Shown here: piece after piece, positions 6,827 through 15,595 of the stretch
How positions within the stretch are numbered: the stretch's first letter is position 1
How the letters are laid out: each line of letters starts with the position of its first letter
Origin: an uncultured Gemmatimonadaceae bacterium
GTDB taxonomy: Bacteria; Gemmatimonadota; Gemmatimonadetes; Gemmatimonadales; Gemmatimonadaceae
Assembly: GCA_963817955.1 (NCBI GenBank)
Contig: CAWFQK010000004.1
Coordinates: 1,184,001 to 1,248,000, forward strand
Length of the DNA stretch: 64,000 nucleotides
Reading direction: 5' to 3'
Made by a program: the position numbers and the translations under genes
Notes under the pieces: model-generated
Told to the model about the DNA's origin: nothing
The model's input: only the letters and a program-made list of their open reading frames with translations
The model's database searches: none

Positions 6827-7870
6827 ATGTCTGCCACTCGCCGACTACTCGGACTCGCGTTGCTCCTGGCGGCGGAGCCCCGCCCCGCTGCTGGCCAGAA
6901 GCTGGAGGCGCTATGGTACTCGACCGACGGCGAAGGGAGCACGCAGAGCTTCCTCGCGCACGCCGATCAGATCTCGATCGTGTCGCCACAGGTGTTTTCC
7001 ATCGATAGCCTCGGCGTCATCTGGGGCAAGGTTGATCCGCGCGTGGTGGCAAGGGCGCGAGAGAAAGGCGTTCAGGTCGTGCCGCTGGTGATGAACCCGG
7101 GGTTTGATCAGCCCACCATTCATCGCATTCTCACCGTCGCCGACGCCCGGCATCGGGCGATCGAGAACCTCGTCGCGCTCTGCCGCGACAATCATTTCGA
7201 CGGCATTCAGTTCGACATCGAGAATGTCAACGTCGCCGATCGGGATGCCTTGACGAGCTTCATGCGCGCATCTGCCGAGGCGCTGCACCGGGTGAATTGT
7301 TCGGTGTCGGCGGCGGTGGTGCCGCGCAGCGGCGAGTTTCCCGGTTCGACGAGCTACCATCGCTGGATCTACGAGAACTGGCGCGGGGCGTACGATTACA
7401 AGGCGTTGGCCGACGCGCTGGACTTCATCTCCTTCATGACGTACGCGCAGCACACCGGCGGAACGCCGCCTGGGCCAGTGGCGGCGTATCCATGGATGGA
7501 GGACGCGCTCAAGTACGTGCTCGCACTTGGCGTCGCACCATCGAAAATCTCGCTCGGCCTGGCCGCCTACTCTGACTGGTGGTATCCGGTCTTCGAGCCG
7601 GCCACCGGCCCACGCATGCGCGGGAGCGACATCTCGTACGCCGTCGCGACGGGACTACTCGCCAAGCATGGCGTGCAGCCGATCTGGGACGATCGCGACA
7701 AGTCGCCATACGCCTTCTGGAGTGAGGACGGCGTGAACGAGTTTCTATGGATGGAGGACGCGCGCGCCTTCGCCGCGAAGCTGGCGCTGGTGCGCACCTA
7801 CAAGCTGCGCGGGTATTCCGTATGGGTCCTCGGACTCGAGGACCCGGCGGTGTGGACGTTGCGGAAGTGA
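6827..7870 (+). CDS. Glycoside hydrolase family 18 protein (YaaH/YdhD-like)
   Basis: FDGIQFDIE catalytic motif, FMTY, KISLGL, and C-terminal LRGYSVWVLGLED. Starts 3 nt after the M1 gene, so probably an operon. Confidence 0.88.
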   Translation: MSATRRLLGLALLLAAEPRPAAGQKLEALWYSTDGEGSTQSFLAHADQISIVSPQVFSIDSLGVIWGKVDPRVVARAREKGVQVVPLVMNPGFDQPTIHRILTVADARHRAIENLVALCRDNHFDGIQFDIENVNVADRDALTSFMRASAEALHRVNCSVSAAVVPRSGEFPGSTSYHRWIYENWRGAYDYKALADALDFISFMTYAQHTGGTPPGPVAAYPWMEDALKYVLALGVAPSKISLGLAAYSDWWYPVFEPATGPRMRGSDISYAVATGLLAKHGVQPIWDDRDKSPYAFWSEDGVNEFLWMEDARAFAAKLALVRTYKLRGYSVWVLGLEDPAVWTLRK

Positions 7871-7905
7871 ATGGAGAGGGGGATTCCAACCGAGCCCCCC
7901 CGTGT

Positions 7906-8358
7906 TCACTCTGACACGGTGTAGCGCACCTGCACATCAGCGGTCGCGACCGCGACCGTGCCGAAGAGGGGTCACCGCCGCTTGAAACCTTCGATGAGCG
8001 CGGCGGCTCGCGAGGCGTCCGTGCCGAACAGCGTGAACTCGACCTGCACGCTGTTGAATGTCGTGAAGTCGGTGCGCACTTGCTTCGCGCGATCGACCCC
8101 GCCGCGAATCTGCACCGCAACGCCGCGTAACGGCACGCCCTGTTCGCGCGCGAGCACCGGCACCAGCTCGGCACCGCAGGCGGCAACGGCGGAGAGGAAG
8201 ACTTCGGTCGGCGTGACTTCCTCGCCGGGGCAGCCGTTCTGCTCCGGGCCATCGATAATGAAGTGGTGGTTACGCGCGCCGCACAGCACCCGTCCAAACA
8301 CGTCAGTGGACCGGGCGGTGGCGGTGTACTCGCGAAGCGTGGGTGTCGGAGTCGTCAT
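7906..8358 (-). CDS. OsmC/Ohr-like redox protein, probable selenoprotein (UGA at 7974-7972 read as Sec; 150 aa)
   Basis: OsmC motif PTEVFLSAVAACG. The frame continues past TGA as GFKRR*PLFGTVAVATADVQVRYTVSE to a TGA at 7908-7906. The UGA occupies the second conserved C-P position. Confidence 0.8.
7941..7958 (-). promoter_or_regulatory. Candidate bacterial SECIS element
   Basis: Perfect 7-bp stem CGGUCGC/GCGACCG with a GGUC loop. The stem begins 13 nt and the loop 20 nt 3' of the in-frame UGA. Confidence 0.7.
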
Positions 8359-15483: not shown

Positions 15484-15522
15484 AAAACAGAAAAGCCCGG
15501 ACGAGTGACAGCCGCCGGGCTT
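15484..15522 (-). terminator. Terminator-like hairpin directly 3' of the SAM-II-like aptamer
   Basis: Stem AAGCCCGG/CCGGGCTT (15522-15515 / 15500-15493) followed by TTCTGTTTT on the minus strand. Confidence 0.7.
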
Positions 15523-15527
15523 GTCGC

Positions 15528-15578
15528 GTTTTAGCACTTTGTTTTACGTGGCGGCAATGGGCGGCAAATCACCACGAG
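15528..15578 (-). ncRNA. SAM-II (SAM_alpha-type) riboswitch aptamer
   Basis: Minus strand: CGUGGUGAUUUG-ccgccca-UUGC-c-GCCACG-UAAAACAAA-gu-GCUAAAA. P1 CGUGGU/GCCACG, GAUUU, UUGC, A-rich linker and GCUAAA match the SAM-II consensus as I recall it. It lies upstream of a Met-pathway gene. Confidence 0.8.
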
Positions 15579-15595
15579 CATTCAGTTGTCCGGAG

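Follow-up and report, generated by a model that had tools for sequence, protein, structure and literature searches.

The window analysed here, a stretch of 64,000 nucleotides from an uncultured Gemmatimonadaceae bacterium (assembly GCA_963817955.1, contig CAWFQK010000004.1, positions 1,184,001 to 1,248,000), carries on its minus strand a gene for an OsmC-like protein whose reading frame is interrupted by a TGA. The open reading frame (ORF) called at this locus comprises 128 codons (7972-8358) and closes with GFKRR at the TGA at 7974-7972; the same frame then continues through 21 sense codons, PLFGTVAVATADVQVRYTVSE, to a second TGA at 7908-7906, which leaves 35 bp (7871-7905) before a convergent GH18 gene. 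A hairpin, CGGUCGC-GGUC-GCGACCG, begins 13 nt past the first TGA. All four features had been described in an earlier note made from the letters of the window, which took the gene for a hidden selenoprotein, and all agree with the sequence, with the refinement that the conserved 6-bp core of the hairpin starts at 14 nt. As judged by comparative sequence analysis, the gene at 7906-8358 is predicted, with a probability of roughly 0.9, to be an intact selenoprotein gene of the OsmC/Ohr fold that is recoded to insert selenocysteine (Sec) at codon 129 and is truncated by annotation.

The Pfam OsmC profile (PF02566, cut-off 27.5 bits) recognizes both versions of the protein. The truncated protein scores 29.1 bits over residues 45-122 (profile positions 3-78 of 100), and the read-through protein scores 38.9 bits over residues 45-135 (profile positions 3-91 of 100); as the match lengthens with read-through, the family profile spans the TGA. 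The Pfam score and the predicted fold together place the protein in the OsmC/Ohr superfamily.

The UGA Codon in Homologues and Orthologues

A search over 5.8 billion proteins returned 2925 matches, and among the best 120, which carry source names such as "OsmC family protein" from Gemmatimonadaceae and related metagenome-assembled genomes (MAGs), 73 are full length with the motif R-C-P-[LI]-[FY]-G, one has Trp in place of the Cys, and 46 end in ...RR. These 46 proteins, with lengths of 126-155 residues, stop one residue ahead of the Sec/Cys column, and they are truncated gene calls, as the earlier note had expected of a 150-residue protein under standard annotation. The outcomes that the note had held to speak against its proposal, namely homologues that genuinely end at KRR, a residue other than Cys at this column, or a genome lacking Sec machinery, were not seen.

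The DNA of related genomes gives the same picture. A close orthologue is present in 15 genomes among 41 relatives, the window's own genome included, and 12 of these copies carry one in-frame TGA while three carry none. Orthologues at E <= 1e-20 were found in 10 of 401 genomes sampled across the phylum, every one from the window's own family, and in 82 of 401 genomes sampled within Gemmatimonadaceae, spanning 24 of 77 genera. When the DNA of the family orthologues was read, with stops read through and counted, column 129 proved to be TGA in 73 of the 82 and TGC or TGT in eight, the remaining one being a fragment (G438) that stops earlier and was left out of this reading. The frame continues past the TGA in 73 of 73 TGA-bearing orthologues, and the orthologues end near the position of the window's true stop, by TGA or by TAA/TAG (the last two were not separated by the scripts). 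Thus the residues expected by the earlier note at position 129 of the homologues, Cys or a TGA codon followed by conserved residues, were those found.

A related-locus search of contigs gave eight loci, and whole-genome searches yielded more. Cys-form loci from the same genus retain the GH18 neighbour (L025, L037) or the BNR/sortilin-like neighbour (L027, L037) of the window gene and are therefore positional orthologues. Two genomes of other phyla also hold Sec forms, one a MAG of Candidatus Angelobacter (L051) and one of Betaproteobacteria (L054), and selA is above the cut-off in both. Of 150 representatives of clusters at 50% identity, listed from 438 matches (E <= 0.001), 26 stop directly ahead of the column, with identities as low as 34%, and these end points suggest that the Sec form reaches well beyond the window's clade.

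In a tree built from the 128 columns upstream of the Sec site and rooted at its midpoint, 45 of the 46 truncated rows and the Trp row form one clade (Shimodaira-Hasegawa-like approximate likelihood ratio support 95) that is set among Cys forms, and the remaining truncated row (P0112) is placed apart, also among Cys forms. Midpoint rooting alone gives no direction to the change between Sec and Cys. A general reading of TGA as Trp, as in genetic code 4, was considered and rejected, since the gene itself terminates at TGA; the lone Trp row nests inside the Sec clade and so seems to be a gene called with a different code.

Two further observations concern individual homologues. In genome G019, the tail of the Sec-form OsmC gene (L028) shifts frame after ...VAVATPE (UPLYGTVAVATPEALGRSSVGG...), and the match to selA falls into two overlapping parts, one with two TGA codons; these defects may mark a lineage that is losing Sec use, or they may be assembly errors. 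Two long database proteins, P0125 (714 residues) and P0143 (2157 residues), contain the OsmC-subfamily domain in 4 and 25 separate stretches, respectively, and are tandem or repetitive multi-domain proteins.

A Conserved Hairpin Downstream of the UGA

Bacterial Sec insertion depends on a selenocysteine insertion sequence (SECIS), and the hairpin that follows the UGA has the features of such an element. Taken alone, the window hairpin has a fold energy of -13.1 kcal/mol (z -2.62), which 5 of 200 shuffled sequences equal, and in this single sequence it stands only weakly above chance. The relatives are far more informative. A gap-free alignment of 72-nt segments from 81 Sec-form genes (79 distinct) shows standard pairs in 474 of 474 cells of a 6-bp stem (columns 27-32 with 37-42), and compensatory changes occur in three of the six pairs, in 22 cells (G-C to A-U or C-G, and C-G to U-A). 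When columns were shuffled, the covariation score, the percentage paired, and the pairs and cells with changes on both sides were reached by 0 of 500 shuffles, and the number of further pair types by 32 of 500, counts that are not probabilities, since the relatives are kin and the shuffles overstate their independence. Slid registers of the stem pair in 20-63% of cells, and RNAalifold, run on the first 35 genes with no structure supplied, returned the identical 6-bp stem. The window hairpin has a seventh, outer pair that cannot form in 6 of 34 distinct rows, and the core regarded as conserved therefore measures 6 bp. Of the 81 genes, 80 have the loop GGUC and one has AGUU. Judged by these relatives, the conservation of the hairpin is not due to chance.

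The RNA also leaves its mark on the protein. Some of the compensatory changes alter the residues encoded by both arms (Val to Ile together with Thr to Val or Ile), and the RNA therefore constrains the protein. All 81 Sec forms have the residues A-V-A around the loop, whereas just 4 of 73 Cys-form proteins do, and 15 different triplets occur among the latter. The clearest test of a constrained RNA comes from the proportions of synonymous (pS) and nonsynonymous (pN) differences, calculated by the Nei-Gojobori method with our own script for 81 Sec forms and nine Cys forms. Over the six hairpin codons, pS is 0.039 in Sec forms and 0.525 in Cys forms; over the four codons before the hairpin, the values are 0.49 and 0.61, and over the ten codons after it 0.668 and 0.666. 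By this sequence comparison, the synonymous freezing of the hairpin codons is specific to the forms with TGA.

The published model of the bacterial SECIS (bSECIS; PMC13188914, legend of Fig. 2) calls for a loop of 3-9 nt that has G among its first two nucleotides, a stem of 4-16 bp, a distance of 16-37 nt from the UGA, and a minimum free energy of at most -7.5 kcal/mol. The window hairpin lies within every one of these limits, with its 4-nt GGUC loop, a stem of 6-7 bp, 20 nt between UGA and loop, and the energy given above.

The C-Terminal Tail and the Predicted Fold

The codons that follow the UGA evolve as protein-coding sequence. Among the 81 genes, pN is 0.058 and pS 0.49 over the four codons after the UGA (pN/pS ~0.12), and pN is 0.444 and pS 0.668 over codons 11-20 (pN/pS ~0.66). 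A full-length AlphaFold2 model built on a 57-sequence alignment has a mean predicted local distance difference test score (pLDDT) of 85.4 and a predicted template modelling score (pTM) of 0.75, and the tail forms a helix (residues 130-138) and the last strand (residues 141-149) in a block of pLDDT 94-95. By the substitution pattern and the model, the tail is translated, is under purifying selection, and is part of the fold.

Foldseek comparison with the Protein Data Bank (PDB) matched 141-150 columns, led by 2onf (TM-score on the query, TMq, 0.78) and 1lql (TMq 0.80). Nearly all of the 30 top matches listed are OsmC, Ohr, or OsmC-like proteins by name, with generic titles for 2egt, 1ml8, and 2ql8.

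Selenocysteine Machinery and Other Predicted Selenoproteins of the Genome

The earlier note had reasoned that the organism would need the Sec machinery, and the genome (4.53 Mb in 9 contigs, completeness 94%) holds all of it, with every component above its curated cut-off. Profile searches found selA (545 bits), selD (376 bits), and selB (312 bits, with a further C-terminal stretch of 32 bits in the same frame), and the Sec tRNA (73.8 bits) lies directly downstream of selD, where ARAGORN also reports a tRNA-SeC with the anticodon TCA.

Two other genes of the genome are likewise predicted Sec/Cys-pair genes. The selD gene (contig C4:449343-450454, minus) has an in-frame TGA in ...FARCAGUAAKLGPG, which we take to be the usual Sec/Cys site of SelD. 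A peroxiredoxin of the AhpC-TSA/BCP type (contig C4:1294792-1295172, minus, 138.7 bits) has an in-frame TGA in ...FYPKDNTFGUTIEAC, and TxxU is the motif that Table 3 of PMC1088965 gives for Sec-peroxiredoxins; with this motif at its peroxidatic Cys, the protein is probably another selenoprotein of the genome. Among the 41 relatives, selA is above the cut-off in 37, genomes with Cys forms included, and therefore the correlation between the Sec form and selA is uninformative. The window's genome also encodes further OsmC-family paralogues with no internal stops (C7:119141-119425, C1:101005-101283, and C2:250581-250862).

The Active Site and the Proposed Mechanism

The first Cys (C61) is found in every row of the alignment used (A4, 57 of 57) and in every diverged cluster representative (42 of 42), and the second column (129) is Cys in 22 of 22 full-length diverged representatives and Sec or truncated in the rest of the 42. 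These are the only Cys positions conserved across diverged members, and the earlier note's description of position 129 as the second catalytic Cys corresponds to an alignment with the OsmC fold. A third Cys, C43 (NGCPGEE), is invariant in close homologues and was weighed as a further active-site residue; it was rejected, as only 13 of the 42 diverged representatives keep Cys and many have Gly, so that it is no family feature. Other near-invariant residues are R23 (40 of 42), E52 (40 of 42), E46 (38 of 42), and likewise Asp36, and R29 is conserved in 36 of 42; the conserved Arg and Glu residues may correspond to those of the OsmC/Ohr catalytic triad.

In the proposed mechanism, the ribosome would arrive at UGA-129, where SelB carrying Sec-tRNA(Sec) would bind the hairpin just downstream, Sec would be inserted, and 21 more codons would be translated up to the real stop. 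Sec129, in the C-P motif, would then lie opposite Cys61 on the long helix, and the two would act as the redox pair in an OsmC/Ohr-type hydroperoxide reductase that is thiol/selenol-dependent, with a catalytic cycle that would pass through a Cys61-Sec129 selenenylsulfide reduced by a cellular dithiol.

Of the two Cys of Ohr and OsmC, the one on the helix is peroxidatic and the one in the C-P motif is resolving. By analogy, Sec129 may be the resolving partner of a peroxidatic Cys61, an assignment held at about even odds; a swap of the two roles in the window's subfamily is somewhat less probable, and the small remainder falls to some other redox chemistry. It is tentative, a little short of an even chance, that selenium occupies the resolving position of Ohr and OsmC while the Cys at the peroxidatic position stays sulfur, either for a selenenylsulfide that is easily made and reduced or with the roles swapped. 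We know of no selenoprotein peroxidase with Sec as the resolving partner. If true, either arrangement would mean that two OsmC-fold Sec families recruited selenium independently to opposite halves of the active site.

Weighing the Alternatives

The alternative that survives best, unlikely as it is, accepts Sec insertion and gives the protein a role other than that of a peroxidase, such as a disulfide or persulfide reductase, metal or metalloid binding, or another redox or selenium/sulfur function. The subfamily is indeed far from characterised enzymes: the nearest solved structure by sequence is 2pn2, an uncharacterised protein (E = 0.0015), the NCBIfam subfamily model for Ohr (TIGR03561) gives 18.8 bits where its cut-off is 88.85, and the model for OsmC (TIGR03562) gives no match at E <= 0.1. 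The gene also stands alone between unrelated genes, for GH18 and BNR/sortilin-like proteins, so its context gives no functional hint. Set against this are the modelled fold, which matches the Ohr/OsmC peroxidases over their whole length, and the two Cys columns with conserved Arg and Glu that recall the OsmC/Ohr catalytic set.

A far less probable alternative is that the UGA is read through with Trp, Cys, or Arg by a near-cognate tRNA at a leaky UGA-C, the hairpin either slowing the ribosome or being a by-product. Bacterial termination is weak at UGA-C, and the UGA is followed by CC in all 81 Sec-form genes; the partly kept stem of Cys-form orthologues, described below, would suit this explanation as well. 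It would leave unexplained a genome with the complete Sec machinery and two other Sec/Cys-pair genes, and the residue at the column argues for Sec, because Cys in 73 of 74 full-length homologues (Trp in one) is a Sec signature. Synonymous freezing confined to TGA forms points the same way, as does the fit of the GGUC loop and its spacing to E. coli fdhF and to the bSECIS model.

Least probable of all is that the TGA is a real stop, leaving a nonsense pseudogene or a truncated 128-residue OsmC-like protein with a downstream frame open by chance: public calls end at this TGA in 46 of the 120 best homologues, TGA is the terminator of the window gene too, and the truncated ORF still passes the Pfam cut-off (29.1 against 27.5 bits), but a TGA at the identical column in 73 of 82 orthologues, in a gene found in 24 of 77 sampled genera, purifying selection on the codons behind it, the loss that truncation would bring of a helix and the final strand along with the second conserved Cys, and a covarying hairpin not expected of a pseudogene all speak for a selenoprotein gene.

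Several observations nevertheless weigh against the selenoprotein reading or its enzymatic part, beside the distance to 2pn2 already given. In its 86-nt context, the hairpin has an unexceptional fold energy (z -0.19), which is why the comparative evidence was relied on. Among the nine Cys-form orthologues, 2-6 of the six stem pairs form, and two of the nine have a GGUC loop; part of the stem is therefore either a product of Val-Ala-x-Ala-Thr codons under a high G+C content or left over from a Sec-form ancestor. One Cys form (L138:61-132, genome G437, with TGC) has a perfect 6-bp stem at the SECIS position with a GACC loop, which may be a relic of a recent change from Sec to Cys. For the database proteins, the label "Sec form" was drawn from the end point of the protein and not from DNA, and the sequence used as query and for modelling (P0001) carries one spurious C-terminal residue from reading past the true stop. 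Four public sequencing runs were listed, each with a small share and none of them holding RNA, and no contig from them covers 7889-8077. On the enzymatic side, peroxidase activity is inferred from the modelled fold alone, and the two Cys columns are equally conserved and thus give no pointer to the peroxidatic residue.

Features of the Locus

The positions of the gene and its elements, together with the convergent neighbour, are collected in Table 1.

Table 1. Predicted selenoprotein gene of the window, its elements, and the convergent neighbour (window coordinates).
Feature	Position	Strand	Details
Full gene, predicted selenoprotein	7906..8358	-	150 codons and stop; ATG 8358-8356; translated with TGA as U
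Codon 61, TGC, first conserved Cys of the OsmC fold (AACGAE)	8176..8178	-	Stays Cys
Codon 129, TGA, predicted Sec; second conserved Cys column (R-[U/C]-P-L-[F/Y]-G)	7972..7974	-	
SECIS-like hairpin CGGUCGC-GGUC-GCGACCG	7941..7958	-	7-bp stem; arms 7958-7952 (5') and 7947-7941 (3')
Conserved 6-bp core of the hairpin	7957-7952 / 7947-7942	-	Loop GGUC 7951-7948
21 codons after the predicted Sec, PLFGTVAVATADVQVRYTVSE	7909..7971	-	Predicted last helix and last beta-strand of the fold
True stop, TGA	7906..7908	-	Convergent GH18 gene ends 35 bp away
GH18 family protein (Pfam PF00704, 97.5 bits)	6827-7870	+	Convergent

A search of the whole window with Rfam at gathering thresholds gave no SECIS-type match. 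The sole match is a SAM_alpha riboswitch at 15514-15585 (minus strand), with 37.1 bits against a gathering score of 36; the SAM_alpha family is described for Alphaproteobacteria.

Implications for Annotation and for Selenium Use

Every database protein of the Sec clade that was seen is cut at residue 128 and loses an active-site residue, a helix, and a strand, and the single NCBI model for OsmC-type selenoproteins misses the window's clade. Gene calling is affected in Gemmatimonadaceae, where the gene occurs in 82 of 401 sampled genomes and the predicted Sec form in 73 of the 82, and probably also beyond the family, given the Betaproteobacteria and Candidatus Angelobacter MAGs and the truncated representatives at identities down to 34%. 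The locus would further show that selenium has been placed in the OsmC active site a second time, independently. With Sec and Cys forms at one locus within one genus, nature offers a series for studying the contribution of selenium to a two-Cys peroxidase when it occupies the second site, and the tiny, invariant candidate SECIS (6 bp and GGUC) may serve as a compact element for recoding studies.

Comparison with Known OsmC-Type Proteins and SECIS Elements

The two-Cys hydroperoxide reductases Ohr and OsmC (PDB 1n2f, 1qwi, and 6ebg) share with the window protein the predicted fold (Foldseek probability 1.00, TMq 0.63-0.69) and the arrangement of the two Cys positions, the first on the long helix and the other in a C-P motif ~20 residues from the C-terminus. 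They differ in sequence, with 15-20% identity, and in the second Cys, which is the predicted Sec in the window protein.

The hairpin resembles the SECIS of E. coli fdhF, a bacterial Sec insertion element defined by experiment, which is likewise located within the coding sequence directly 3' of the UGA and has a GGUC apical loop. The earlier note had named this loop, and the minimum free energy fold of the K-12 sequence indeed places GGUC at the apex, 18 nt past the UGA, compared with 20 nt in the window gene. The fdhF element has a bulged U in its upper stem, whereas the stem in the window is a short, perfect one of 6-7 bp without a bulge.

OsmC-like selenoproteins with the motif UxxT were predicted in 2005 from the Sargasso Sea (Zhang, Fomenko and Gladyshev; PMC1088965), and the available parts of later catalogues (PMC2398784, PMC9312934, and PMC13188914, the last of May 2026) give a single form, "OsmC-like protein, UxxT"; the catalogues searched thus list Sec in OsmC at the first site only. 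The accessible literature on OsmC selenoproteins and on selenoproteins of Gemmatimonads yielded no description of Sec at the second OsmC site, and the available portion of the BSepDB supplement has no "OsmC" entry, although the database may list a second-site form.

The known form corresponds to the NCBIfam model NF041052, "OsmC-related (seleno)protein", whose cut-off of 95 bits is well above the 30.7 bits reached by the window protein. When 401 genomes from the phylum of the Betaproteobacteria MAG were searched with this model, four were above the cut-off, one of them holding two copies with one TGA each. A translated copy (154 bits) reads ...IGFULLTQ... at the first site and has Cys at the second (...AGCFAEG), and a deep-Sep representative (row 45 of file 3 of PMC12013277) similarly reads ...GFULLTN... 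and ...KKGCFAES. The NF041052 family and the window protein have in common PF02566 and its fold, two conserved Cys columns, a UGA predicted to encode Sec, a bacterial SECIS or SECIS-like hairpin downstream, and Cys-containing homologues. In contrast, the Sec of NF041052 is at the first Cys (UxxT), which aligns with Cys61 of the window protein, while its second Cys aligns with Sec129, and the translated copy is 16% identical to the window protein.

A second OsmC-like Sec form was found in two genomes of a sister family of the same order (L040:1432-1866 and L041:1435-1881). It shares the OsmC fold and an in-frame TGA with the window gene, but its Sec falls on the first Cys column (LGSUMSMT) and its second site is Cys (RCPVH), with 25-28% identity to the window protein. 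Its two members score 59 and 48 bits with NF041052, below the cut-off of 95, and the GSUMSMT form is therefore also missed by the curated model.

The earlier note had placed any novelty in the lineage or subfamily of an already known class. The class is indeed known, and the novelty goes beyond lineage, as Sec is at the other Cys. As far as sequence comparison can tell, the window protein is a distinct subfamily of a known superfamily and a known kind of selenoprotein, with selenium predicted at the other position of the active site.

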